Assembly (NCBI GenBank): GCA_002505945.1
Contig: DAWM01000022.1
Location: 19,032-55,701 of the forward strand
DNA: 36,670 bases
Source of the DNA: Candidatus Woesearchaeota archaeon UBA119
Lineage (GTDB): Archaea > Nanobdellota > Nanobdellia > Woesearchaeales > UBA119
Direction of reading: 5' to 3'
Both the position numbers and the translations under genes were made by a program. Below the pieces are notes generated by a model that did not search any database, was not told the origin of the DNA, and was given only the letters and a program-made list of their open reading frames with translations. Below, piece by piece: positions 2,981 to 36,100 of this stretch. Numbering within the stretch: position 1 is the first letter of the stretch; the number at the start of each line of letters is the position of its first letter.

Positions 2981-3454
2981 ATGCAACTACCTAAAAGAGA
3001 TTTGTTATTGCTGTGCCAGTTGAGGAAAAATTCCAGAGAGCCGCTGACAACAATGAGCAGGGAAACGCGTATCCCCGTATCAACATTGTACGACAGATTA
3101 CGCCATTTTGAAGAGAGTCAGGTAATAAAGAAACATACAAGCATAGTGAACTTTGGTATTTTTGGCTATGAGGTAAGAATCAACATTATGGTAAAGGTGT
3201 CTCCTTCTTTCAGAAAGGAGTTTAAGGTACGCCTTTTAAACCATGAGAATGTGAACAACCTCTACAAAATCAACAATGGCTTTGACTTTCTTATTGAAGG
3301 GGTTTTTAAGTCAGTCCAAGAAGCAGAGAGTTTTATTGATAACATAGAGGAAAACTTTGAATTCAGGAAACTGGAGGTTTATTATGTAACAGAGGAAATT
3401 AAAAGAGAAGGATTTATGGCAAATAAGGAAACTCTTCCAATATTATATAGATAA
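2981..3454 (+). CDS. Lrp/AsnC-family transcriptional regulator (HTH + RAM-like domain)
   Basis: MQLPKRDLLLLCQLRKNSREPLTTMSRETRIPVSTLYDRLRHFEESQVI is the Lrp/AsnC HTH. It is followed by a beta-alpha-beta effector-type domain (YEVRINIMVKV..FDFLIEGVF). The track ORF starts at 2795, but its first 62 codons are F/I/Y-rich promoter DNA. The ATG at 2981 is preceded by GGTGAT (2971-2976). Confidence 0.75.
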   Translation: MQLPKRDLLLLCQLRKNSREPLTTMSRETRIPVSTLYDRLRHFEESQVIKKHTSIVNFGIFGYEVRINIMVKVSPSFRKEFKVRLLNHENVNNLYKINNGFDFLIEGVFKSVQEAESFIDNIEENFEFRKLEVYYVTEEIKREGFMANKETLPILYR

Positions 3455-3500: not shown

Positions 3501-3547
3501 CAATAAAAGGAGAAATAATATAAATTAGTATTTATTTAAAATAGAAC

Positions 3548-4531
3548 ATGAAGCTTAAACTAAGCATGGTTTTGTGTATCATAATGATGGTTCTTTTTAT
3601 CTCGGCTTGTCAAAAAGATGACGATGATGAAAAACCAGAGATTAAGGAAATTAAAGGTGGCATAGATGTCATCATAGAGGAAGGCTCTCTTCCTGAAGGG
3701 GTTATCCGAAACAAGGTTTTCCCTCTAAGTTTTAAGTTGAGGAATACCGGTAGGTCATCTGCTTCCGGAGTTGTTACTGTAAAAGGAACATCGTCATTTC
3801 TTGAATTCAAAGATACCTTTGGAACCTCAACCACAAAATCTTTCTCCTTCTCAGCTCTACCCGGCAGATCTACTCTCTCTGCCAATCCTCCTGAGAAGGC
3901 GTATGAGCTCACTGTAAGGCCATACTTGGATGATTTAACAGAGTCAAAAACAGTAAACATTGAGTTTATGTTGTGCTATACTTATTCTTTGGTATTTAAG
4001 CAGAGTGTCTGTGTGGATACAAGGCCTAATTTGCCCTCAGGTGATAAGGCTTGCACATATATGTCTCAATCCTTTAAAGGTCAGGGCGCTCCTATAAATG
4101 TGGTTTCTCTTCAACAAAGGACCTATACTGAGGAAGAGGGATATGGGCTTAAAAGGAAAGTAGAATTCATAATTACAATAAGGAATATGATGGAAGGTGC
4201 CCCCATTCCTGTTGAATCCGCTCTTCCTGGACCAAATAATTATTGCCAAGGGGGTAAACTCCCTGAAGGGGTTAATATGGGTTATGTTGAATTTGGAAGC
4301 ATTCGTTTAGGGGATGTAACCATGGGAACCCGTAAACGGGGTGTAGAGTTTGAGTGTTCAGGCATGAAACTAGGACAAAGAAAAGTTCCTTTTGTTAATA
4401 ATGAAGCTCAAATAGTTTGTACTGCTACCTTTGATGAGGATGTACAGCCTTATACTTCTCTACTTGAGGTCCCGCTTTACTTTGGTTATTATTCAGATAT
4501 GGTAGTCCCTATAAAGATTTATAGAAATTAA
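3548..4531 (+). CDS. secreted lipobox protein, 6-Cys family, paralog 1 (function unknown)
   Basis: The signal peptide MKLKLSMVLCIIMMVLFISAC carries a lipobox (I-S-A-C), followed by an acidic linker. CARDB-like strand motifs are present (FKLRNTGRSS, FIITIRNMMEG). It shares landmarks with the next two genes: C-Y-x-Y-x9-C, (S/G)QGAPI, and 6 conserved Cys. A TATA-like aataatataaatt lies ~25-30 nt upstream of the ATG. Confidence 0.8.
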   Translation: MKLKLSMVLCIIMMVLFISACQKDDDDEKPEIKEIKGGIDVIIEEGSLPEGVIRNKVFPLSFKLRNTGRSSASGVVTVKGTSSFLEFKDTFGTSTTKSFSFSALPGRSTLSANPPEKAYELTVRPYLDDLTESKTVNIEFMLCYTYSLVFKQSVCVDTRPNLPSGDKACTYMSQSFKGQGAPINVVSLQQRTYTEEEGYGLKRKVEFIITIRNMMEGAPIPVESALPGPNNYCQGGKLPEGVNMGYVEFGSIRLGDVTMGTRKRGVEFECSGMKLGQRKVPFVNNEAQIVCTATFDEDVQPYTSLLEVPLYFGYYSDMVVPIKIYRN

Positions 4532-4546
4532 ATTACCTTTTTTGAG

Positions 4547-4560
4547 AAAAGTTTTTAAAG
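4547..4560 (+). promoter_or_regulatory. BRE/TATA-like box for lipoprotein paralog 2
   Basis: aaaagtttttaaag, centred ~26 nt upstream of the ATG at 4582 with no SD box between them. This implies a leaderless or near-leaderless mRNA. Confidence 0.4.
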
Positions 4561-4581
4561 TTATTTTCAATAATACTAACT

Positions 4582-5520
4582 ATGAACCTTAAATATAAAC
4601 TGTTTTCAATAGCTCTTGTTTGTATGATTCTTGTTCTTACCGCTTGTCAGCAAGGGGAAGATAAAGACAATGAGGCAAAAGGAACCAAAGGCATAGATAT
4701 CGAAACAAGTATGCTTAATGACAATCTTTACACAACTGAATCCCAAATGGATTTTGGAGTTATTCTGAACATTACTAATAGAGGATATCACAATGTGAAA
4801 CCCTCTGATTTCATCTTAACTTATTCAGGTTTTGATGAGGGCTTAGTCGACCTTTATGATGCTCCTAAAACCTTTTCTAGTTCAAATGATGAGATACTCT
4901 TTGGTGCAGATCCCTTTCATGAGGGAACTACCTACCCGGTATTAGTTTCTGGCAATGTTCATCTGCCATGGGCTTCCCAGGAAACTGATTTTGAGTATCA
5001 TATGAATTTATTCGTCAAATATTGCTATAGATACAAAACCGTGCTTTCTTCAGTGGTATGCATAGACCCCTCTCAAGGATATGACTCCAATGCAGCTTGT
5101 AAGATGAGGAAAGTCCATTTCTCTGGAGGTCAGGGAGCCCCCATAGTGTTTACAGAAGTAATGCCCATTGTTGCCTCTAATAAGGTGGTGTTTCAGGTCT
5201 ATTTAAAGAATGGTGGAGAGGGTCTGGCATTCCCTTCAAAAGGGATTTTTGGGAGTTCTCCTCTTATGAGTTGTGCAGACCTAGAGAGGAATTCTCAGAA
5301 TTTTGCTCAATTAACCGTAGAAGCAACCTTAGGGGGAAAAACTGTTGAATGCACCCCTAATCCTGCCAAGGTAGACTCTGAAGGCACCTATGTTTTATGT
5401 AGTTTTGGTAAACCCGACAAGGAGACTGGTGCATATTCTGCTGTTTTAAACCTTGAAACAGAGTATGTATATGTAGATTCGGCTGATGCTCCTGTGAGTA
5501 TAACTTTCCTCAAAGAATAA
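4582..5520 (+). CDS. secreted lipobox protein, 6-Cys family, paralog 2 (function unknown)
   Basis: MNLKYKLFSIALVCMILVLTAC carries a lipobox (L-T-A-C). Family landmarks are present: LNITNRGYHN, KYCYRYKTVLSSVVCID, SGGQGAPIVF, VYLKNGGEG. There are 6 Cys after the lipobox Cys, in the same order as in paralogs 1 and 3. Confidence 0.8.
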   Translation: MNLKYKLFSIALVCMILVLTACQQGEDKDNEAKGTKGIDIETSMLNDNLYTTESQMDFGVILNITNRGYHNVKPSDFILTYSGFDEGLVDLYDAPKTFSSSNDEILFGADPFHEGTTYPVLVSGNVHLPWASQETDFEYHMNLFVKYCYRYKTVLSSVVCIDPSQGYDSNAACKMRKVHFSGGQGAPIVFTEVMPIVASNKVVFQVYLKNGGEGLAFPSKGIFGSSPLMSCADLERNSQNFAQLTVEATLGGKTVECTPNPAKVDSEGTYVLCSFGKPDKETGAYSAVLNLETEYVYVDSADAPVSITFLKE

Positions 5521-5609
5521 AACTAATATCCTTTTCTGAGGTCAAATGGAAAAATATAAATACTATTATTCAAATAGATTAACTAAATAGAGTGGTTCAG
5601 GTGAATAAG

Positions 5610-6575
5610 ATGAAAAGTTATTACGTTCTTGGTGTTCTGCTGGTTCTATCTTTGCTCTTAACAGGTTGCGATTCTGGTAATGGTAGTGATGAGGACAAAA
5701 TTGAGAGTGGTTTCATTGGGGGAACTAGCGGTCTAGTACTTAGGTGGTATACCCCTGAGCAAGGTTATTTTACCCTCTTGGACAATGGCAATGATGAAAT
5801 ACTCTTAGAACTCCAGGTGGAAAATCTTGGGGAAGCCGATGTGCCCGCAAATAAGGCAACGGTTTCTTTATCTGGAATCTCTTCTAGGGATTTCAACCTC
5901 CAAAAAAATGACCTGACTCAGAAGTTAGAAACTGATTTAAGAGGCATGTTTAAATTAAATGATAAAAAGAGAGATGGGGACCAGACGGTTGTTTCTTTTG
6001 GCCCTATTAAATATATCCCCAAGGTAAGCACCGATATCACTATGCCTGTAATTGCAGAGGTTTGTTATCCTTATAAAACAAGTGCTGAAGCAGTATTATG
6101 TATATCTGAAGATCCAGTAGATTCTGCTGTTTGTGAACCCAACGGAGATAGACCGGTCTATTCGTCCGGCGCTCCTATTCAGATTACAGATTTCACTCAA
6201 GAATCTGCTGGTAAAAATACTTTTATTATTACATTTACTATAAAACATGCGGGAAATGGAGAGATCTTCAAAAGTGGAGAAGGATGTGATTCTCAGGATT
6301 TCTCATCTCAAGGAATTGTGAATGTCAAGGTTGGCAACAAAGAAGATTGGGGATGGAATAGCATAAATGTAAATTGCAATGGTAATCCTGTGGGTGAATA
6401 CTTTACTCAGAGGCTTAGATTCGGAGATGAGAGCACTGTAAGATGCACAGTAGAGGTTACCGATTCTATGGTTGGCGATTATGTAAGAGCATTACCAATA
6501 GAGCTTCAATATGATTACTCCTCAAGCGTATCCACAACCCTTAGAGTCCAATCTTCTTCAGGCTCAGGAGAGTAA
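5610..6575 (+). CDS. secreted lipobox protein, 6-Cys family, paralog 3 (function unknown)
   Basis: MKSYYVLGVLLVLSLLLTGC carries a lipobox (L-T-G-C). Family landmarks are present: LQVENLGEAD, EVCYPYKTSAEAVLCIS, SSGAPIQIT, FTIKHAGNGE. The track start is a GTG at 5592. The ATG at 5610 follows cAGGTGa (5598-5604) by 5 nt and gives a normal n-region. Confidence 0.8.
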   Translation: MKSYYVLGVLLVLSLLLTGCDSGNGSDEDKIESGFIGGTSGLVLRWYTPEQGYFTLLDNGNDEILLELQVENLGEADVPANKATVSLSGISSRDFNLQKNDLTQKLETDLRGMFKLNDKKRDGDQTVVSFGPIKYIPKVSTDITMPVIAEVCYPYKTSAEAVLCISEDPVDSAVCEPNGDRPVYSSGAPIQITDFTQESAGKNTFIITFTIKHAGNGEIFKSGEGCDSQDFSSQGIVNVKVGNKEDWGWNSINVNCNGNPVGEYFTQRLRFGDESTVRCTVEVTDSMVGDYVRALPIELQYDYSSSVSTTLRVQSSSGSGE

Positions 6576-6609
6576 TCTTTTCTGTTTGTTTTTTCCTATT
6601 TTCTTTTTA
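6576..6609 (+). terminator. oligo-T tract after lipoprotein paralog 3
   Basis: tcttttctgtttgttttttcctattttcttttt immediately follows the TAA at 6573-6575, in a convergent intergenic region shared with the RFC gene. Confidence 0.35.
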
Positions 6610-8408: not shown

Positions 8409-11147
8409 TTGGCTGTAAGTTGGGAGGAATTAGCTTTCAAGGAAGCAAAAGAATCTTTGAAAAAGTTGGATTCTTCCCAAAAAGGGCTTAATAATCATGA
8501 GGCAAAGGCTCGTCTGGATAAATTTGGTTACAATGAGCTCTCCCAAGAGAAAAAATTACATCCCCTTAAGATATTCCTTGAGCAGTTTAATAATTTCATA
8601 ATATATGTGCTTTTCTTTGCTGTTGCAGTATCTTTCTTCATTGGAGAGTTTACAGATGCTATAGTAATTTTAATCATCCTTTTTGCTAACGCTTTGTTGG
8701 GTTTTTTTCAGAACTATAGGGCTGAGAAGTCTATTCTTGCTTTAAAGAAATTGACAGCATTGCATTCTACTGTAATAAGAGATGGAGAACAGGTTCGCAT
8801 TCCTGCAAAAGAGGTGGTACCTGGAGATATCTTGGTATTGTCAGAAGGGGATAAGATTCCTGCAGATGCCAAGATAATAACCTCAAATGAACTTGTTTGT
8901 GACGAATCTGTGATAACCGGAGAATCTATTCCTGTTAGAAAAGATAACAAACCCCTGACTAAAAGACTTAAAAAAGAAGGCATTGCCCTTGGAGATGTCA
9001 AAAACTGTCTTTTTAGTGGAACTACAATTGTTAATGGGAATGGTTTAGCTGTAGTTTTTGCAACTGGAAAGGATGCAGAGTTCGGCAAGATAGCAGAAAG
9101 CCTTTCACATGTAAAGCAGGAATCCACTCCTCTTCAGAAGAAATTAGATTCTTTTGGCAGAAAATTGTCTTTCTTGGTTATCATTGTATGCGCTTTAATC
9201 TTCCTTTTAGCCCTTTTTAAGAACCTTGATAATCTGAGCTTTAGTTCTGCTTTGGATAACTTTAAACTCTCAATCAGCCTTGCTGTGGCTGCTGTTCCTG
9301 AGGGTCTTCCAGTAATAATTACTCTGGCTCTTGCAATGGGAGTAAGAAGCCTTTCTAAGAAGAAAGCTCTTGTTAGGGTGCTTCCTTCTGTGGAAACATT
9401 GGGTAGCACCTCGGTAATCTGCACGGACAAAACAGGAACACTCACGAAAAATCAAATGACGGTAAAGAAACTATACCTTGGAGGAAAGGCCTTGAAGGTA
9501 GGAGGAGTTGGATATTCCCCAAAGGGAAAAGTGGAATTTGTTGATTCAAAGAAAAATTCCTCTTCCTTTATAAAAGAGAATTCTCTTTTCTTTGATGTTT
9601 GCCAATTCTGCAATTCAAGCAGCCTTTTTAGGCAGGATGGCAAGTGGTTTGTATCTGGGGATCCTACTGAAGCGAGCTTGTTGGTGCTGAACAAGAAAAT
9701 ATCCTATGTCCCCGATAAAAAAATCAAGAAGATAAAGGAGTTCCCTTTTTCTTCCTCAAGGAAGATGATGAGCGTTATTATCAAGAAAGGCAAGGATTAT
9801 TTTCTTCTTGTAAAAGGAGCCCCTGACTTGATACTCTCGAATTCCAGCCATCTTTTAGAAGCAGGAAAAAGGAAAAAGCTTTCTCATTCCAAGGATACCA
9901 TATCAACCTCTTCTGAACAAGAACTCAGAAAGGTAATAGATGAGTTTGCGCAGCAGGGCTATAGAGTTCTGGGTTTAGGATACAGAAAACTTTCCTCAAA
10001 AGAGATGAAACATATTGAAAAACTGCACGAGGATGACTTAGAAAAGGGTTTTACCTTTCTTGGCTTCGCAGGGATGATAGATCCGATCAGAGAAGAGGTC
10101 CCTCAAGCTATAGAAAACTGCAGAACTGCTGGTATGCGGGTAATAATGATAACAGGGGATTATCCTTTGACAGCTAAAGCAATTGGCGAGCAGATTGGAC
10201 TAGGAAGCCAGGTTGTAGAAGGTTCCCATATAGATCGGGTTTCAGAGAAAAAATTCAAGGAGATTGTGGCTAATACCAATATCTTTGCTAGGGTAGCTCC
10301 CGATCAAAAGATGAAAATCATTCAGCAGTTAAAAGACGATGGTGAGGTAGTTGCTATGACCGGCGATGGAGTTAATGATGCCCCTGCTCTTAAAAGAGCA
10401 GACATCGGGATTGCAATGGGAGAAACAGGAACAGAAGTGGCTAAACAATCAAGCGACATGATTCTTGTTGATAATTCCTTTGTCAATATATCCAATGCTG
10501 TATTTGAAGGGAGACGGATATTTGATAATATTGAGAAGTTTATTAATTATCTTCTTGCCACTAACTTAGCGGAGGTTTTGATAATCCTGGTGGCAGTCTT
10601 CTTTGCCTTTCCTTTCCCATTAATTCCAATACAAATCCTCTGGATAAACTTGATAACAGATGGTTTGCCAGCCATAGCATTAGGAATGGATCCTGCTTCA
10701 AAGGATATAATGAAAAAGAAACCCTATAAAGAAAAAAAAATCTTCTCAAAGGAGATGCTTTTTGCTATTCTTTTGATAGGTATTATTGTAACCTTTGGAG
10801 TGCTTTTGATTTATTTCTCTAACATCTCAAAAGTTTCTTTGGAGATTGCAAGAACCATGGCCTTAACAACATTGGTTTTGCTTGAGATTGTTATACTTGA
10901 TGCGGTGAGGAACAGATTTGGCCAGGGTTTATTCTCCAATCCAACCCTTTTGCTATCTTTGGCAGGGGCTTTTGGAGCTCATTTTCTGATACTTTATACC
11001 CCGCTTTCTCGCTTCTTCCATACAGTACCTCTAACTCTTGGCCAATGGGGTTCAATCCTCTTAGTTGTGATCCCTCTCATCTTAGGCTTTAGATTGCTCA
11101 GTTTTATATTAAGATTCATAAGGGAGAAGCATTCTGAGAGGACTTAA
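8409..11147 (+). CDS. P2-type cation-transporting P-type ATPase (Ca2+-ATPase-like)
   Basis: CTDKTGTLT phosphorylation motif, AAVPEGLPVIITLALA (TM4 PEGLP), KGAPD, MITGDYPLTA, TGDGVNDAPALKRADIG, and about 10 TM helices across 912 aa. The start is a TTG at 8409, 7 nt after AGAGGTG. The N-terminal W-x-x-L...GL-x-x-x-EA-x-x-RL-x-x-(F/Y)G-x-N-x-L block is intact, so the start is close to correct. Confidence 0.93.
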   Translation: MAVSWEELAFKEAKESLKKLDSSQKGLNNHEAKARLDKFGYNELSQEKKLHPLKIFLEQFNNFIIYVLFFAVAVSFFIGEFTDAIVILIILFANALLGFFQNYRAEKSILALKKLTALHSTVIRDGEQVRIPAKEVVPGDILVLSEGDKIPADAKIITSNELVCDESVITGESIPVRKDNKPLTKRLKKEGIALGDVKNCLFSGTTIVNGNGLAVVFATGKDAEFGKIAESLSHVKQESTPLQKKLDSFGRKLSFLVIIVCALIFLLALFKNLDNLSFSSALDNFKLSISLAVAAVPEGLPVIITLALAMGVRSLSKKKALVRVLPSVETLGSTSVICTDKTGTLTKNQMTVKKLYLGGKALKVGGVGYSPKGKVEFVDSKKNSSSFIKENSLFFDVCQFCNSSSLFRQDGKWFVSGDPTEASLLVLNKKISYVPDKKIKKIKEFPFSSSRKMMSVIIKKGKDYFLLVKGAPDLILSNSSHLLEAGKRKKLSHSKDTISTSSEQELRKVIDEFAQQGYRVLGLGYRKLSSKEMKHIEKLHEDDLEKGFTFLGFAGMIDPIREEVPQAIENCRTAGMRVIMITGDYPLTAKAIGEQIGLGSQVVEGSHIDRVSEKKFKEIVANTNIFARVAPDQKMKIIQQLKDDGEVVAMTGDGVNDAPALKRADIGIAMGETGTEVAKQSSDMILVDNSFVNISNAVFEGRRIFDNIEKFINYLLATNLAEVLIILVAVFFAFPFPLIPIQILWINLITDGLPAIALGMDPASKDIMKKKPYKEKKIFSKEMLFAILLIGIIVTFGVLLIYFSNISKVSLEIARTMALTTLVLLEIVILDAVRNRFGQGLFSNPTLLLSLAGAFGAHFLILYTPLSRFFHTVPLTLGQWGSILLVVIPLILGFRLLSFILRFIREKHSERT

Positions 11148-18512: not shown

Positions 18513-19331
18513 ATGCTGACATATGAACCACATCCTGTTTTATTCTCCCTCTTTGGATTTGAAATAAGGTATTATGGACTCTTTTACCTGATTGGCTTCT
18601 TAGTTGTGTTTTTTATGTATAATCGCCTGTCTAAGAGATTAAAAGGCTTAAATCATTCAAGAGACAAAGCCTTTGAGATGCTTTTTTGGGGCTTGGTGGG
18701 GGGAATATTCTTTGCCCGCCTCTTTTATGTTTTCTTTTATGACTTCTCCTATTACTCAACTCATATTCTTGAATCCTTCTTAATCTGGAAAGGTGGATTA
18801 TCATTTCATGGTGGGCTGGTTGGTGCTGTGTTTTTTACATATCTTTTCTGTAAGCATAACTCTATCGATTTTCTTGAGGTTGCAGATATTGTGGTAATCC
18901 CTGCTGCTTTGGCACTTGCCTTAGGAAGACTAGGTAATTTTCTCAATGGGGAATTATATGGCAGAGTAACAAATGTGCCCTGGGCTGTCCGTTTCACGAC
19001 TGATCCTCTATTAAAACCAAGACATCCTTCTCAGATATATGAATCTTTCAAGAATGTTTTAATTTTCCTTATCCTTTATCTGTTCTTCAGGCTTAAGTAT
19101 ATAAGAATGAAAGTAAGGGAAAGAAGAGGCTTAATCTTAATATACTTTATTTTTCTTTATGGCCTGTTTCGCTTCTTTGTAGAGTTCTTTAGAGCTCCTG
19201 ATCCGCAATTGGGTTTACTCTGGCTTGGTTTATCAATGGGTCAGTGGTTTTCTTTGTTTATGGTTATTTCAGCATTCTTGCTCTACTTCTTTAAGAGATA
19301 CAAGCAAAACTCTGCTCGGATAACCAATTGA
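18513..19331 (+). CDS. lgt: prolipoprotein diacylglyceryl transferase (bacterial-type Lgt)
   Basis: All the Lgt signature blocks I know from E. coli Lgt are present and colinear: YGLFYLIGF, GGLSFHGGLVG (HGGL motif), LGRLGNFLNGELYGR (E. coli GRLGNFINGELWGR), and PRHPSQIYES (E. coli RHPSQLYE). The protein is a 7-TM-like polytopic protein of 272 aa. Confidence 0.9.
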   Translation: MLTYEPHPVLFSLFGFEIRYYGLFYLIGFLVVFFMYNRLSKRLKGLNHSRDKAFEMLFWGLVGGIFFARLFYVFFYDFSYYSTHILESFLIWKGGLSFHGGLVGAVFFTYLFCKHNSIDFLEVADIVVIPAALALALGRLGNFLNGELYGRVTNVPWAVRFTTDPLLKPRHPSQIYESFKNVLIFLILYLFFRLKYIRMKVRERRGLILIYFIFLYGLFRFFVEFFRAPDPQLGLLWLGLSMGQWFSLFMVISAFLLYFFKRYKQNSARITN

Positions 19332-26934: not shown

Positions 26935-27195
26935 TTATTTTTTAACCATGCTGGAGGCGTTGAAACAGCAAAACTTATCACAGCCCATCCCCCTTCTAGT
27001 AATCATACCTTTTCCTGCACATTCATCTTCTCTTTCAACGCATTTTCCTCCATTATAGTTGTTACATTCAATATCAAACCTGTCGCTTCCTTGGTTGAAA
27101 AGATTGATTGCGATAAGCACAACTACAACAAGCGCGATCACGGCTAAAACCCATCCCACTCCGGATTGTATTATCTGTGATTTCTTATTTTTCAT
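26935..27195 (-). CDS. small Cys-rich membrane-anchored or pilin-like protein, paralog A (86 aa from the ATG at 27195)
   Basis: MKNKKSQ + hydrophobic helix (GVGWVLAVIALVVVVLIAINLF), then ECNNYNGGKCVEREDECAGKGMITRRGMGCDKFCC (C-x7-C-x6-C-x12-C-x3-CC). The track start is 27219. I prefer the ATG at 27195 because it reproduces the MKNKKS N-terminus of paralog B and overlaps the giant-ORF stop (AACAATGAAAAATAA), suggesting translational coupling. The start remains uncertain. Confidence 0.6.
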   Translation of the reverse strand: MKNKKSQIIQSGVGWVLAVIALVVVVLIAINLFNQGSDRFDIECNNYNGGKCVEREDECAGKGMITRRGMGCDKFCCFNASSMVKK

Positions 27196-30100
27196 TGTTG
27201 AAAAGTTCATAGTCTGCATTTTTTAAATAAGTTATATCTCCCACATAGCTCTCTAACATAGCATTTAGTTTATCTTCAACAACATCTTTGGTAGAAGCAA
27301 CCATAAACAATACACTCTCTCCACCATATTGGATCTTTTTCATATAAAAATTCTTAAAAGACCAGGCAATAAGTCCATAAGCAGGTATTGTATCCTTGTT
27401 GCCACAGAAACCATTTTGGATTGTTTCACTGAATTCCATCTCATCCTGTTTAATTGATATTGGAATTTCGCATTTCCCCTGGAACTCTTCTTTAAATTCG
27501 GCAATCCCCTCTAGACAGAAACCTTCAGATTGGTAGAAATTAATGCAAGGTGAAATCACTGGGTTTTCAACAGGTTCCGAAATAAAGATTAAGTATGTCT
27601 TGTCGTTATTTTCCGTGAATAAAGGATACTCATTCTCCTCCACAAAAAGGGTTATATCTCCAGTTCTCTCAAGTTTAATTTTAGTTTCCTTTACATTTAC
27701 ATTCTTCAACATCTCTTGAAACTTTAAATTAACCATTTTATTCTTGTTGAGGTCTTGTTTTAGTCGCATGTCAAATATGTTGAGCATTAGACGAGTTTGT
27801 AAACTATTCCAATTTGTTATAACCCAAGTATAAGGAGCAATTATAATCTGTCCTGTTTCTTTTACCAGCTCCCCTGCCTCATCTACAAATGCCTTAAATG
27901 TATTGATATCCCTTTTTCTGAAATCCATCGTGAGTACTCTCTTTCCTACCTCGTCCTTGGAAACTTTGAATAATACATTACCATCATCGTCAATGTTCAG
28001 GATTTGTTCTGATGCTTTTACTCCCTGGACGAGCTCTATAATATAGGTTTTCTCTAAGAACTCCAAAACTATCTCTTCTGTTCCAAAATCAATTTCCCGC
28101 CTCTCGCCCTCAATATCCTCAATAACTATTTTATTTATTGTATACTTAGTAGGTGTTTTTTCTTCTTGATTCCTCAGATATAACCCTAAAGCCCATCCAG
28201 GATCATCAATAGGATTCGTATATTCAAGACTTTTTATAGCATTGAAGACCTGTTCTGTCTTAAGTATTTCGCCTCCGCCGTTTGCGAGGATGTCTTTTAT
28301 CTTTGATATAACATCTCCAACTGCCATGCACTTAGGCTCATCAATATTTGCAAACCAAGGGATATCGCAGCTGCCCTCCATTGAGTGAGTAGTCTCGCTT
28401 ACAAAGAGAGAGTCTGGGTCGTACTCATAACATTCATTATCCTTGTCATAATAATACTTTGAAAACTTCAACTTTGTTTCTCCTGAGAACACAGCCTCCC
28501 TATTGCCGTCCGCTAGCTTTATCTTTGACTCTAATTTATCTGAGAATTGTGTGAAATATTTATCGTTGGATTCCAATTCAAAAATTTCTTCTCCATTTCT
28601 GATGATAAGTTGTTCATCCGAGGGGATAGGGAATTTTACCAATGTGAAATTATATGTATCTTCATCTTCTATGTAATTTATACATTCATTATCATTGATT
28701 CTTTTATTAATATCAGAAAGCGTTTCAGAGCAACCCTCATAAGCAAGCTCATTATTTCCTTTCAAATCAAAATGTTCTTTAATTCCGTCGTGCCCGCCTT
28801 CGCCTTTTTCTAATACAGTTAGAATTACATCCTCATCGCCTTGAGAACAATTCCTCACAAGAACCAGCAAGCTCCCTGTTTCACTAACCTCCCCATCTAA
28901 TATATTTACAATATTGTCTGATGTTTGGAGTTCATACAGATTCTCTCCTGAAGAATACATAAGTCCCCCTCCTTGAGAGACAACCCTAAAGCTTCCCTTT
29001 GGAAATGCTTCGGATGCATAACCTACAAACGCTTTGATGTTTTTATCGTTAAAAAACTTATCAAGTGCGTCAAGTACTGCAGTGTCAATTTCCTTTTGAA
29101 TCTCCTTACTGCATTCCTCAAGTTCCTTATTTGTTTCAATTGTTAACCCATTATATTCATCCTTCTTGAACTCAATCTCTTGGTCATTATTATAAACTCC
29201 ACCAATAGCCCAATCTTCTTTAATATAACATTCGCTTGCAGAGTTCAAGTTATGGTTTCTTATAACTGTTGGTATGTTACCTGTAAGCACAACTTCTCCT
29301 TCAACATTAATTCCTGTGCTTCCCCTTGCTAACTCATAAATCTCTCCGTTAAGATAATATCTCAATACTGCCTTTTTGTTTAAGAATACAATCTTAAGCT
29401 GCCCTAACTGCCCTCTTTCATCGAACAAGTTTTCATGTCCTGAGAAATATTGTGATTTGATGCTATTCAAATCAAGGATAATTCGTGTAGCATAATTTTC
29501 GTTATTGTTTTCAGCATCTTTTATATCAGTAATAAGTTGAGCGAAACTATCCTTCAGTTCTTGATTTATAGTTCCTACTTGATCAAACTCCATTATCAGT
29601 TTGTTTCCTTCTATCTTTAGGACAACATACCCTGAAGCAGGTATAGAAGCAATAGGATTTTGTCCATTGTTAAATTCAATGTTATACATGCTTTCTTTCA
29701 GGTCTATTCTTACCTGTTGCTGCGTATCTGTTTTTCTTCTTAGGAAAATTTTGTCGGAAGTGGGATAATCTATTATAACAGAATTGATTTCTTCAGAGCT
29801 AATGTAAAGCTCTTGGTTTATCTCTTCTCCGCCAACGAACTTAACTCCAAACTCCAGTTTATTATTTGGATATGCGGATTCAAAGTAATCCACTGCCTTA
29901 AAAAATTTCTGAATACCCATGGTTATTTCTCCCCCATTATCCAAAAGACTTTTTATCTTGCTTATTGCATCTCCTACCTCAGAACACTTTGGTTTTATAG
30001 GTGAAAGAGAAGCATCATCAGCGGTATAACATGTGTTTCCTACCATGTCTAAGGATGTTGGAGTTATATAAATGTTAGAATTGCCTTGAGCATAGCATCC

Positions 30101-33100
30101 TTCTTGTTGGAAATATTTTGAGAAAAGCAAGACGTTTCCAGATGAAAGAATACTAGACTCTTCCCCTTGAGTTACCCAAGGAGTCCTCATCTTCTTGGAA
30201 TATTGCGGATAAAATCTATAATCAGAATCAACCACGAATTGTTCATTTCCTTCCATAAGGGAAATGCTTTCTCCATTTTCTCTACCTGGCCATTTAACTA
30301 TGGTGTAATCGGAATTCCAAAGATTATCTTCAACACAGCTTATTCTGGCATTAATAGCATCCAGCGTAGGAGAACACTTTTCGTGGTAATAGATTGGCGT
30401 ATATTCTGTGGTTATAATGGAATCTATGTGGTTCTTTAGTTTAGTGTATTCATCTTCATTTGCATCTATCAAATCAACTATTACCTCTCCGTGTTGATTT
30501 TGATAGGAGCACTCCCTTAAAAATAAGAGGAAGTATTCGCCTGCCGGTTTTTCAATAATTCTCACATTATTATTGAAGTCTTTCAAGATAATTGTTTCCT
30601 GTCCCGTTATCCCATAGTTGAAGTCGCCATATCTTATTGAGAATCCTTTCATACTGTAATCAAAGTTAATAGTAAACTTAGGAGTATCATCATCTATTTT
30701 AATAATTAAGGCTTTCCAATTATTATTGAAGAACTCGGAGATAGATTCTCCAAGCTCCTCGGTTTTATCTTCTCCTCCAATCTTCTCACAATTATCCATA
30801 TGGCTTTCGATTACCCAGAATGGTTTTTCCCTTTTGATCCTAGAGTTATCATAGCTTATAATCTTCCATTTCTGAAGCTTGTCATAGCACTCTATATCCG
30901 TTCCATCTGATTTCTTCTCTGTTCTTGTTTCAAAATTGGATATGATTATGTTGTTGTTCTTACTCAAAACATAATTTTTTTCAGATGCTAAATCCAGTCC
31001 AACTTTCATTATATGGGTTGTACCAGAGGACAAGTCCACCATGTTGTTTTTAAATGTGATAGTAAGATGCCCAAGATTCCCATTAAAGTAAACTTCATTA
31101 ACCTTGTCGTGATCAATGATTATGCTCATAACGTCATCAGAGTAATCTGATAGCTTTCCATTTAAATCGTTTACAAAACTGCTGAAAGAATTCCTTATTT
31201 CATAAAACTCAGACTCCTCTCCCATAAAGTTCATCGTAATGGTGTCTCCTTCTCGTTTTAGGACCATTTTCTCTGAATTAGCGAAGTCTCCAATGCTTGC
31301 AGGGTTTGTTATTTGGATTCGATAAAAAGTATTTGTTGAGGATAAATAGAAGATGGTTTCTTCATCGCCAAGTTCTATTACCTTCCTTTCATACTCGCCA
31401 TTCTCTTTTTGATATATTATTCTTACATGCTTTATGCCTGATGTTTTAACTCCGGGGTTTGTTTGTGCACCGCCGTCATTTCCTTTAAAGAACACAGAAA
31501 ACTTCGGTTGGTCTTCATCTTCAGCTTTGTTGTATTCAATATTGTCTATGGCTTCGAAGAAATCGTTTGTATTTATCTCAGCCGATCCTCCATTCTCAAT
31601 TATATCTTTTATCGTAGTTATTGTTTCGCTTCCTTCAGGTTCTTTTTCATCCCAATACTCGCAAGCAGACCCGCTAGTTGCTCTCAAATCAGTGATATAG
31701 AGATAATTATCATTGCCCTTTAACACTCCACCTGTTTCATCAATATATCCCTTTGACATCTTAATTCTCTTGTTTCCTTCAATAGACAGTTCTAATAAGG
31801 AATAGTAACTTTCAGAATCTTGTGCTTTCATGATTATTTTGCCAATAGGTTTTTCTAGTTTGTCGCTGTATTGAGGGAAATATCTGTTGGCAGAAGTCAG
31901 TTTGAACTCATTCCAATAAGGCTGGATACTTAGTTTTTCTGTTTTCTCAAACTCAAGGTTTATTAAGGCATAATCTTTTTCTCTGTTTAATAGGTCATTG
32001 GCGCAGGTTATCCCTTTATTAATATTTGTCAAGCTCTCAGAGCAGCGTTCATATTGTACCACTCCATCCCCACTATCAAAATACTTTCTGAGCTTTGAAT
32101 TCTCTGCCTTATCAGAAGCAACCACATCCAGAATAACATTATTGCTGTCATATGAGCAGTTTCTGACAAGCTTGAGTATTCCTCCTTTTTGCATATATCC
32201 TTCCTTTATATTGACATTCTGCCCCGGTGTCTCAATATCAAACTTATCTCCTTCCTTGCTTAAATAAATTAGAGATTCACCGCTTTTCTCAAAAACACCG
32301 CCTAAATAACCATCTTCATTGAAAAATATGCCTGCCTTTCTATTCTTATCAGCAAAGAAATTATCAATTTCGCCAATAAAGGATTCAACATCTTGTTCTT
32401 TAACGAGTCCACTGCATTCAGGCAGGGAGTATTTATCAATCTGAATTCCATAAAGTGTTGTCGTTGTCTTTTTGTCATTAATGTCCTCAAGTCCTGTGTC
32501 TGTAACCTGTCCGCCTCCTAATTTCCAATTGATGGGAGTATAGCAGTATTTGGAGTTCTTTTCTGAAAGGTCAAAGTTTCCTATAATCAATGGATTGTTT
32601 GTAAGGGTGCGAGTTTCATCGGCATGTATGTAGTAAGAATCCCTACTGGCAATCACACCGCCACTGTTAAGATATTGGTATTTGAGAGTTGCCTTCTGAT
32701 TAGAAAATTCAATCATCAGCGTTTCATCTTCAAACAATCCTTTGTCTTCTTTAAAGTACTCGTTTGCGATATTATCGAGTGTAAGTGAGAAGAATGTCGG
32801 CTCGTCTTCATGGCTGTAAGCGAGGTTGTTAAGTTTAGTTGTAAAATCCTTAAATCCTTGCTTTAGTCTTTCTTCATTTATTACCTGCTCTTCTTTCCCT
32901 TTCTCGAATCGAATTTCAAACCTCCAAAAAATTCTTTCTTCTGCCTTCTTCTTTATATGCACCTTGGATGATGGGACGATGCCTGTGCTGATCTCGTCTT
33001 CTCCATAAATCTCAATTTTCAGAGTGTTAAGAAAATTAGCTTTTTCACCGTTTTCTAACACATATTCTTCAGTGTCTCCTGCTATATTAGGATAAAAGAT

Positions 33101-36100
33101 AATTGGTTCTAAATAAAGCCGATAACTTTTTTCTTCGCCGTTAGAGTAACCTACATCCAAGACATGAGACCAAGGCTTTTTTATGAAATTGAGAGCTTTA
33201 AAGAAATACTCTGCGCGCTCAATTGTCGCTTCATTAACAAAATTGTCGTGCGCTAAAACCGTCTTAATCTTTTTAATCGCAAGCCCAACCTCATCGCATT
33301 TTGGTTTTATGGGTGAAAGGGAAGCATCATCAGGGGTATAACATGTGTCTCCTACCATATTTATCTCGGTTGAACCCACAAAAATAAGATCCTCATCTTT
33401 CTTGTAACAATAGTATTCTGTGGAGTAATTATATTTTGTAAAGAGCAGTTCCTTTTCTTCAGTCCCTGAGAAAAGATTGTCTGCATTTCCCTTTATTTCT
33501 AATGGTCTGCTAAACTCTTTGGAATATTGCGGATAATACCTATCATCAGAATTGACTACAAATTGTTTATTCCCTTTCATGAGAGAAACGCTTTCTCCCT
33601 CTTTTTTACTAGGCCATTTAACTATGGTGTAATCTTCAGCGCCTAAATATTCATCAACACAGTCTATTCTTGTGTTTATGTTGGATATAGTATCTAAACA
33701 GGTTTCATGATAAAAGACCTGGTTGGCCCTTCCTTCGCTTTCCCTTATAGAAATAATCTTGTCGTTTAGGCTGTTATACTCCTTATTCCCTTCTGCTTTT
33801 CCAACAAAATCAACAACTACGCTCTCTTTTGGATAGGAGCAGTTCCTAAGAAAAATAAGGAATCCTCTCTTTCCTGCTCCTTTAAGAATGATATCCTTTA
33901 CTCCGTTGGTCTCAATTGTTTCTCCTTTTAATAAGAACGTATCAGGATTATTCCCATTATCAAATGTTGTGAGTTCTAATCCAGGAGTTTCTTCTGTGAG
34001 GTTAATAACCAGTACTTTCCAATTGTCTTCTGCGAAAAAGGACTCTACCTTATTCACAATCTCATCAATCATTGTCTCTTTTTGAACCTCAGTACAGCTC
34101 TTTATATTAGTTGGACCAGAATGGATTGCGGTTGCCCTTGGTTTATTTGCCCCATCCATTACCCAGTTTCCTTTATTTGTTTTCCTATAGCACCTTTTGT
34201 TATCATCGTCATCGTTCTCAATCATATAATTGCGCAGAAGAGTATGATAATTAAAATCAAAACCATTAGCTAGCTTCTCTCCATAATTACTCTGAGCTAT
34301 GAAATTAGTGCCTGTTGAATATTCCTTGCTATAAAAAAGCAGCTTAGCTTCCTTTTCCAGGAATTTGATTCTATATTCCTCAAGATTACCAAAGAAGTAG
34401 TTGTCAACTACCTCATTATAGTTCAGCGTGATGTTCATGGCTTCACCGGAATCTTCATTTTCCTCGATTGTACTGTTTAGAGCTTCTATGAAATTATAAA
34501 AGCCATCAATGTATTCACATTCAGCGATTGAGATTGATTTGATCGTTTTCACGGCATCTTCTCTGTTCTGATATTTATCTTCCGTAATGACTCTCCAGCT
34601 ATCTATCATCTCATTACAGGGTTTGTTATGGGTTAAGGAAATGATGTAGTTTCTTAGCCCGAAAATCTCTTTTAAGTTATATTCTGAAGTGGATTCTACA
34701 CCAATCTTTTTTAGATAAATCTTATTCTCTTCTCCTTTAAGTGTAATTTTACCGTTGGCTACAAAGATATTAAAGATATTTAATATTCCTTTAAAGCATT
34801 CCTTATTTATCAGGTTATAATTGAGCACAATATCCATTGGTTTATCATTATTAACTTCATTTTCAATCTTGCTTTTTAATCCATTTACAAACTCGTCAAA
34901 GTAAACCTTTGCAATATCCCAAGCAGTTTCCTCTCCCTTAAAATTTATTACGAGCACGGGCTCTTCATTAATCTGTTTTAGTTCTAATGCAACTTTATTA
35001 GAATAAAGGATATCGATGGGGTCTCTATTTGTGATCTCTATCCCTTTGTAATCTTCTATTAAGAACCTAATTATTGTTCTTTGCGTAGGTTCAACAATCC
35101 TTGCTATCACTTCGGTTTCCCCTGAATTAAGAGGGTCTACATTTTCCTCGTTGAGTATGGCCACTTTTTTTATTGGGTATGGTGTTGATTCTTCAGAAGT
35201 GATGAACTTAGCCACAAGTTCAGAGTCCTTTCCATCATATTCTAAGGTTTCAAGCGCATTAAGGAATTCATCAGTGTTAATAACTCGTCTGCCTTTTCCT
35301 TCCAAGGCTTCCTTGATTAGAGGTATTGCATTCCCGACATCCTCGCATTTCTTATTATAGATAGAACTTAGTTCTCCTTTGAAAGAATTGCAACTGCCTT
35401 CAAGACTTTCTTCAGTTTTACTAAGGTATATATTGGAATCATCCTTTTGATAGCATTCTTCAACATCTTTAAGATAGTATCTTGAGAATTTTATTTTTTC
35501 GTTTTTTCCTGCCTCAATGAACCCCTTATCTCCATTTATTTTTATATCTTCATCCATTTGCATTTGCTTGCTGAATTGAGGATAATATCTCAAAGAAGAG
35601 GTTAGATTAAAGTGTTTTTGTTCCTCATTAATCCTCGCTTTCTCATCTTCCCCAATTCCAAACTTAACTATAATATAATCGTTATCCTCTAATTCTATTT
35701 TTTCATTCACACAATCAATGTATTCGTTCAATTTCTCCAAGCTACCGGAGCACATCTCTTTGTGGAATACATTAGGCGCAGCGTTTTTTGCTTCTCTTAT
35801 ATCTTCTAATTTTGTTTTTAGATTATTGAATTCAGCTTCATCTTCATCCTCCCCGATGAAGTCAACTATTGCTGCTCCTGAGGGTTTTGAGCAGTTTCTC
35901 AGCAGCACCAAATAGCTTTGTCCTTTAGGTCTCTCTATAATACCCGACTCAGAACTATCTTTTAATACCAAGCTTTCCTGATTGATCTCAACATTAATTT
36001 CCTTACTCATAATATAATTACCTAATGTTGTGAACTCCAAATCAGGGGCATTCTTATCCAAAAATATAACCAAAGCCTTCGTTTTCTTATTGTTAAAGAA

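Follow-up and report, generated by a model that had tools for sequence, protein, structure and literature searches.

Bacterial lipoproteins matured by Lgt and LspA are recognized by a signal peptide that ends in a lipobox ([LVI][ASTVI][GAS]C) and is followed by a short flexible tether. Archaeal surface proteins with a lipobox, matured by AliA/AliB, have likewise been described in Haloferax volcanii; the same 2025 study predicts that lipoproteins are prevalent among DPANN archaea and states that archaeal homologues of Lgt or Lsp had not been identified (PMC12462473). Here we examine three consecutive genes, A, B and C, on a stretch of 36,670 nucleotides from Candidatus Woesearchaeota archaeon UBA119 (assembly GCA_002505945.1, contig DAWM01000022.1, positions 19,032 to 55,701); this whole stretch is called the window, and coordinates refer to it unless another locus is named. 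Our results are best explained if A, B and C arose by ancient duplication and are subunits belonging to an envelope protein family, so far undescribed, that is found in DPANN archaea of the Woesearchaeota type. They resemble bacterial lipoproteins in signal peptide, lipobox, short tether and the presence of genes for both Lgt and LspA, but differ in their archaeal host and in mature domains that belong to no bacterial family. From the lipoproteins matured by AliA/AliB they differ in that their likely processing enzymes are a true Lgt and LspA, their signals are Sec-type rather than Tat-type, and their mature domains are unrelated. Few uncultured archaea are as widespread as the Woesearchaeota and their relatives, and very little has been learned about their cell surface or their encounters with partner organisms.

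All three genes lie on the + strand. Gene A (3548..4531) encodes 327 amino acids (aa), with the signal peptide MKLKLSMVLCIIMMVLFISA directly before the lipobox Cys, an acidic tether and two predicted beta-sandwich domains. Gene B (4582..5520) encodes 312 aa, and gene C (5610..6575) encodes 321 aa when read from the ATG at 5610 (MKSYY...). This start is better than the GTG at 5592: the orthologue in locus L001 agrees with it, and a Shine-Dalgarno-like GGTGA (5600-5604, +) lies 5 nucleotides upstream. Pairwise identity in the alignment is low (20-25%). BLASTP comparison (E-values of 2e-8 for A/B, 4e-7 for B/C and 2e-3 for A/C) indicates that the three proteins are real paralogues. N-x-G, C-Y-x-Y, GAP(I/V), G-x-G and Y-x-Y motifs align colinearly in all three, as do six Cys beyond that of the lipobox (residues 143, 155, 169, 233, 270 and 291 in A; 148, 160, 173, 231, 257 and 273 in B; 152, 164, 175, 226, 256 and 279 in C). 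An earlier reading of the DNA alone, referred to here as the original prediction, had described three same-strand genes with an ordered set of shared landmarks and six conserved Cys besides the lipid-attachment residue. These claims stand, with two corrections of detail. The spacing from C-Y-x-Y to the next Cys is indeed identical in A, B and C, but it is x8 and not x9, and the second (N/H)-x-G strand motif, proposed for all three proteins, is degenerate in A (RNMMEG).

At the N-termini of A, B and C, a basic n-region leads into a hydrophobic helix that is followed by a lipobox (ISAC with Cys21 in A, LTAC with Cys22 in B, LTGC with Cys20 in C). An acidic stretch follows the Cys, with 8, 6 and 5 Asp and Glu in the first 20 mature residues of A, B and C, respectively, so that the lipoprotein-type signals and acidic linkers first read from the sequence are present. 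When all 1,193 open reading frames (ORFs) of the genome were scanned with a regular expression, 12 proved lipobox-like, and the three largest are A, B and C. Pfam LPAM_1 (PF08139) matches 4 of 42 family members. Among 203 members aligned, the lipobox Cys column is 98.5% conserved, the six non-anchor Cys are each 92-100% conserved, and all seven are kept in 187. Counting the lipobox Cys as the first of the seven, Cys 2 and Cys 5 (Cys148 and Cys231 in B) are jointly lost in ten members and singly in two; because they are lost together, the pattern suggests that these two residues pair. The tether, counted from the anchor Cys to the first conserved Gly, has a median of 15 residues and an interquartile range of 14-17.

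The window itself encodes a bacterial-type prolipoprotein diacylglyceryl transferase, Lgt (18513..19331, +), which matches PF01790 over its full length (2.6e-72 in the window scan, 9.2e-73 in the genome-level Pfam search) and has intact HGG, GRLGNFLNGELYG and RHPSQIYE catalytic motifs. LspA is encoded elsewhere in the genome (G000:C77:2280-2675, -; PF01252, 1.1e-25) and has the ITDF and FNVAD aspartate motifs. The Lgt of the window is presumed to be the enzyme that lipidates A, B and C. In a control for these Pfam searches, ten of 14 named genomes were positive, and all ten were bacteria. Lgt was found in 265 of the 301 genomes of our phylum sample and LspA likewise in 265 of 301; the lineages without them (families f137, f141, f144, f148, f149 and others) are largely those without the lipoprotein family. 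In the sister orders, 53 genomes have both the family and Lgt, 2 the family without Lgt, 5 Lgt without the family, and 23 neither; the corresponding numbers for the window's own order are 204, 11, 3 and 0. Every Lgt-negative genome of that order but one retains LspA, and because LspA is still there, these absences look like assembly gaps. The family offers a ready substrate for testing whether Lgt and LspA of bacterial type, whose genes occur all through the class, make lipoproteins in archaea.

We also examined the fold of the mature proteins. AlphaFold2, run with a 42-sequence alignment, modeled C with a predicted local distance difference test score (pLDDT) of 91 and a predicted template modeling score (pTM) of 0.84, giving a signal helix, a linker and two all-beta domains. 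A model of B (ma96917c508d3, pLDDT 78) agrees with it in its all-beta domains. The models thus support a build of two tandem beta-sandwich domains, as had been proposed. A solute-binding lipoprotein was considered and rejected, since such proteins are two-lobed and alpha/beta whereas the model is all-beta, and the only matches of that kind were noise in the signal-peptide region (MntC, E 0.054; 6all, residues 1-47). No family fitted when A, B, C and ten distant representatives were scanned against Pfam and NCBIfam, and searches of the PDB with 7- and 42-sequence profiles returned nothing below E 0.03, the hits being signal-peptide noise. The original prediction could not name the family, and these searches, together with Foldseek, agree.

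The early strand motif V/L-x-(L/I)-x-N-x-G had been called CARDB-like, and a faint likeness does exist. CARDB (PF07705) scored 14.6 bits (E 0.04) on C against a gathering threshold of 22.7 bits; sub-threshold matches occurred in 5 of 42 members (best E 8e-4), and none reached the gathering score. Weak PDB profile matches (E ~0.7) were to 2kl6 and 3idu, which we take to be CARDB-type domains. A, B and C share with CARDB and DUF11 domains the all-beta sandwich and this strand motif, but differ from CARDB in that their two-domain build is fixed, six Cys are conserved and a long C-Y-x-Y-x-T strand, absent from CARDB, is present. Foldseek searches against the PDB (two models) and BFVD returned only generic tandem immunoglobulin-like (Ig-like) proteins, at TM-scores of ~0.2 and ~10% identity. 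The matches included integrin calf/thigh domains, complement MG domains, transglutaminase barrels, RbmA, the C-terminus of VesC and, among the viral proteins of BFVD, a DUF11 protein. The best of these, the tandem Ig-like or fibronectin type III matrix and adhesion proteins (Vibrio RbmA, integrin alpha calf/thigh and the transglutaminase C-terminal barrels), have two consecutive beta-sandwich domains as A, B and C do, a likeness of fold class only.

Within the family alignment the two N-x-G motifs are 100% and 94% conserved, and the invariant positions hold Cys, Gly, Asn, Tyr, Pro or Thr. Because no catalytic-type residue is among them, the pattern points to a structural protein, with no sign of a catalytic or ligand site. 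Comparison of domain 1 with domain 2 by hhalign was not significant (probability 1.7%), with only the terminal Y-x-Y strands aligning.

The family is large and its copy number is nearly constant. Public data hold 2,590 clusters at 50% identity, nearly all of 295-345 aa, and every named relative is annotated as a hypothetical protein. Of the 151 genomes in the window's order, 147 have the family (139 of 143 genera), and nearly all of these have three copies (modal count 3). A genome-wide count of paralogues, proposed as a check on the original prediction, gave exactly three in the window's own genome (1.04 Mb, 86.5% complete), namely A, B and C. Genomes of the sister orders yield one or two copies to the profile, one well conserved and the other a more divergent lipobox paralogue directly upstream. 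The lipoprotein genes were adjacent and in the constant order A-B-C in the 20 neighborhoods compared. In the tree, C genes form the orthologue clade with the best support (99/93), and the well-conserved copy from the other orders groups as its sister (96/92), and the first two genes form an A+B clade (97/95); the A and B of the window fall inside the latter and its C inside the former. Relative to the near-identical strain of locus L053, A has no amino-acid changes, and B and C show ratios of nonsynonymous to synonymous substitution rates (dN/dS) of 0.28 and 0.12, respectively; comparison within the genus gives ~0.13 for B. These values indicate that the three genes are under purifying selection. 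JGI sample 3300043116, in which this lineage is abundant, contains a near-identical strain.

The original prediction had allowed that the array is either ancient or fast-evolving. The first of these holds and the second does not: order-wide fixed copy number, position-specific clades and dN/dS below 1 indicate an ancient set fixed throughout the order. The same evidence bears on the proposal that A, B and C form a variable array of independent, redundant or diversifying binding proteins or adhesins. Low identity between the three, the faster change of A and B than of neighboring genes in the window lineage, and the fourth copy (a duplicated C) in one sister genus would be expected of such an array. 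However, three copies in nearly all of the 143 genera sampled, a fixed gene order with position-specific orthologue clades, dN/dS well below 1, and 187 of 203 members with every one of the seven Cys and the structural motifs retained would not, and we regard the proposal as highly improbable, essentially excluded by copy number, tree and dN/dS. The sister genus in question belongs to the same GTDB family as the window (loci L049, at G322:C5:1654-6846, and L051 and L052, in genome G280) and has four copies, C being duplicated in tandem.

Potential N-glycosylation sites provided a further characteristic of the family. The 203 members together contain 47 N-x-S/T sequons, when shuffling predicts 501 +/- 20, a depletion of about tenfold, and 167 members have none. 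In contrast, the other ORFs of the window's own genome that begin with a hydrophobic segment are enriched in sequons (365 vs. 238 +/- 13). Sequon avoidance where other envelope proteins are sequon-rich is an unusual mark of a constrained surface. Together with the short, length-constrained tether, it points to a membrane-proximal protein whose surface is largely taken up by fixed protein contacts.

Archaeal surface layer (S-layer) proteins are typically heavily N-glycosylated, and Ig-like beta-sandwich domains are common in them, as in Haloferax, Nitrosopumilus and Methanosarcina. A, B and C might accordingly be protomers of an S-layer or other lattice coat, with an N-terminal lipid anchor in place of a transmembrane helix. 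Such a coat would suit a family that is near-universal in its order, fixed in stoichiometry, built from Ig-like domains and served by a consensus-like TATA box at every gene, and even the avoidance of sequons would fit tightly packed interfaces. However, S-layer glycoproteins have abundant N-glycosylation sites, and here depletion is tenfold even though AglB is encoded in the same window. The proteins are also small (~300 aa) and tethered very near the membrane, and their conserved, apparent translational coupling to a polytopic membrane protein (P2, below) fits a discrete complex better than a lattice. Sequon depletion and small size make a classical S-layer less likely, and we judge a lattice coat of any kind to be quite improbable. 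As a separate observation, a giant ORF of more than 3,160 aa that occupies 27185-36670 (-) of the window is also depleted in sequons (10 vs. 29 +/- 5 by shuffling).

In most relatives the lipoprotein genes do not stand alone. Two further genes, P1 and P2, lie directly upstream on the same strand in 16 of 22 loci, and in relatives the P1-P2-lipoprotein block sits between pelota and RFC. P1 (~400 aa) carries an anchor at its N-terminus and has a beta-rich ectodomain; P2 (430-920 aa) combines transmembrane segments with a Cys-containing ectodomain. Pfam scans and profile searches matched neither P1 nor P2 to a Pfam or PDB family, and sequons are depleted in both by ~2.5-fold. The spacing between P2 and the first lipoprotein gene is -30 to +2 nucleotides, and because the genes overlap or nearly abut, translational coupling of the two is suggested. 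By gene order, P1-P2-A-B-C appears to be an undescribed five-gene envelope module of which the trio is the tail in most relatives. The window matches it in the order A-B-C and in having C in its own clade, but has no P1 or P2 upstream. The P2 ectodomain resembled lipoprotein domain 2 weakly by hhalign (probability 38%), which is a lead only. Domain 1, domain 2 and the P2 ectodomain each close with a long Y-x-Y strand, and a distant common origin of the ectodomains of the module is possible. A class III (pilin-type) signal in P1 was considered because of a KKGQ sequence there, but polar residues split this motif from the hydrophobic stretch and we do not claim it.

A peptidoglycan hydrolase domain ends 3 of the 14 P2 proteins scanned: SLT in L026:5807-8242 (5e-9) and in L030:10625-12817 (-; 1e-11), and Peptidase_M23 in L027:4358-7114 (1.4e-7). 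The other 11, including the candidate from the window's own genome, have no such domain, and it appears that the peptidoglycan-cutting tip of P2 is exchangeable. These domains raise the question of whether the trio, with or without P1 and P2, is the membrane-proximal part of a host-contact apparatus with which these small symbiont-type archaea would dock onto bacterial walls and sometimes cut them. Large SLT proteins of Woesearchaeota and Pacearchaeota have already been proposed to bind bacterial walls (PMC8204110). They come from the same lineages, and P2, sometimes carrying SLT, may overlap that family; they would be partners and not homologues of A, B and C, whose family is not described in that 2021 study, where lineage-specific families are called "mostly unknown". 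Tandem Ig-like domains are also typical of adhesion proteins, and in the window's own genome ORFs of pilin-like appearance, judged by eye, come after the P1-like and P2-like genes. On the other hand, 11 of 14 P2 proteins have no wall-cutting domain, a 15-residue tether holds the lipoproteins within a few nanometers of their own membrane and gives them poor reach, and strong purifying selection and fixed copy number are unlike those of host-range determinants. The hydrolase tips of P2 and the published proposal make a role in contacting bacterial walls plausible, but as an account of the trio we consider the host-contact apparatus unlikely.

The own-genome cluster just mentioned lies on contig G000:C79 (locus L048, 2991-10807, -). 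It contains the P1 homologue (3.8e-49), a P2-like membrane protein of 525 aa, a 238-aa Cys-rich protein and four ORFs of 160, 172, 319 and 685 aa, and parts of it are masked with N. The N-termini of the four ORFs, with basic and hydrophobic segments, are pilin-like by eye. One possibility is that this cluster is a locus for a surface filament and came to occupy the P1/P2 neighborhood when the trio moved away.

Considering the evidence together, we give a probability of roughly 60% to the reading that A, B and C are lipid-anchored, disulfide-stabilized, non-interchangeable subunits of a hetero-oligomeric envelope complex that in most relatives includes, or works with, P1 and P2. A, B and C would be exported by Sec, after which the bacterial-type Lgt would lipidate the lipobox Cys and LspA would then cleave the signal peptide. 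A tether of ~15 residues would hold the mature proteins at the outer membrane surface of the cell, and each would fold into two tandem CARDB-like beta-sandwich domains presumably held by three disulfides. The three proteins would not be able to replace one another and would most likely assemble, in fixed stoichiometry, into a glycan-free, hetero-oligomeric surface complex. In most relatives this complex, co-encoded with P1 and P2, probably works with both, whereas in the window lineage the trio would have moved away from P1/P2, gained its own promoters and come to lie behind an Lrp regulator. The analysis itself shows paralogy, fold class, conservation of the lipobox and Cys, copy number, synteny, genes for Lgt and LspA, and depletion of sequons; lipidation, the pairing of Cys, assembly into a complex and the role of that complex are inferred.

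Several observations weigh against this reading. The lipoprotein genes are apart from P1/P2 in the window's own genome, as they are in four more of the 22 loci, and the case that A, B and C function together with P1/P2 is consequently drawn from synteny in other genomes. In the window's own genome, the counterpart of P2 (525 aa, on C79) was assigned by position and architecture only, with an hhalign probability of 22% and a partly masked sequence. The A and B of the window lineage are on long branches in the tree, the flanking Lrp and PhoU/AbrB-like genes have a dN that theirs exceeds by a factor of 1.7-2.9, and their role may have drifted in this lineage. The co-distribution of Lgt and the family in the sister orders is suggestive, but involves few independent lineages and is not statistical proof. 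Finally, the usual lipid of Lgt is ester-linked phosphatidylglycerol, and the membrane lipids of this organism may or may not serve the enzyme.

A bolder version of the same idea, which we consider less likely than not, is that the trio is the conserved lipid-anchored core of an undescribed surface machine, nearly universal in Woesearchaeota-type archaea and consisting of P1, P2 and two or three lipoproteins, that mediates contact with partner cells and in some lineages cuts bacterial peptidoglycan. The machine would depend for its assembly on a true Lgt/LspA pathway of bacterial type operating in an archaeal membrane. If true, no natural substrate of an archaeal Lgt would have been known before A, B and C, and a large clade of uncultured archaea would have a candidate apparatus for symbiosis. 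The family is one of few envelope components kept by nearly every member of the group, and as such provides a handle for antibodies, structures, tomography labeling and proteomics.

Finally, we examined the surroundings of the trio in the window, where it is placed between an Lrp/AsnC-family regulator and a convergent RFC gene. The regulator (2984..3454, +; PF01037, 2.2e-7) is directly upstream of A, as the original prediction had noted. Divergent from it is a gene for a PhoU/AbrB (MazE-like)-domain protein (1981-2892, -), and these two genes occupy the place upstream of A that P1 and P2 hold in most relatives. The pair is next to the trio throughout the window's GTDB family (L001, L049-L052 and L054), in all of which the trio is detached from P1/P2, and could be a lineage-specific regulator of the trio; the placement behind Lrp is confined to that family. 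The window is archaeal and also encodes the RFC small subunit, aRF1, AglB/STT3 and a TrmB regulator.

Each lipoprotein gene had been thought to have its own TATA-like box, and as sequence matches such boxes are present for A (ATATAAAT, 3518..3525, +), B (TTTTTAAA, 4552..4559, +) and C (ATATAAAT, 5554..5561, +). The first two lie ~26 nucleotides before their ATG, and for A the arrangement suggests a leaderless transcript from its own promoter. Because the box of C lies ~52 nucleotides upstream, this gene would have a short leader with the Shine-Dalgarno sequence described above. An oligo-T run (4538-4543, +) lies just past the stop codon of A, and a consensus scan placed a terminator-like hairpin with a T-run (6565..6594, +) over the stop codon of C, at the end of the array. 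In the sister genus with four copies, Lrp and A are not adjacent but lie ~3.4 kb apart, with unmatched sequence between them. In L001 (GCA_030156615.1, NCBI: Candidatus Woesearchaeota), a His_Phos_1 histidine phosphatase gene (9064-9666) lies between the B and C orthologues, and because of this insertion the array appears to tolerate interruption within the window's GTDB family.

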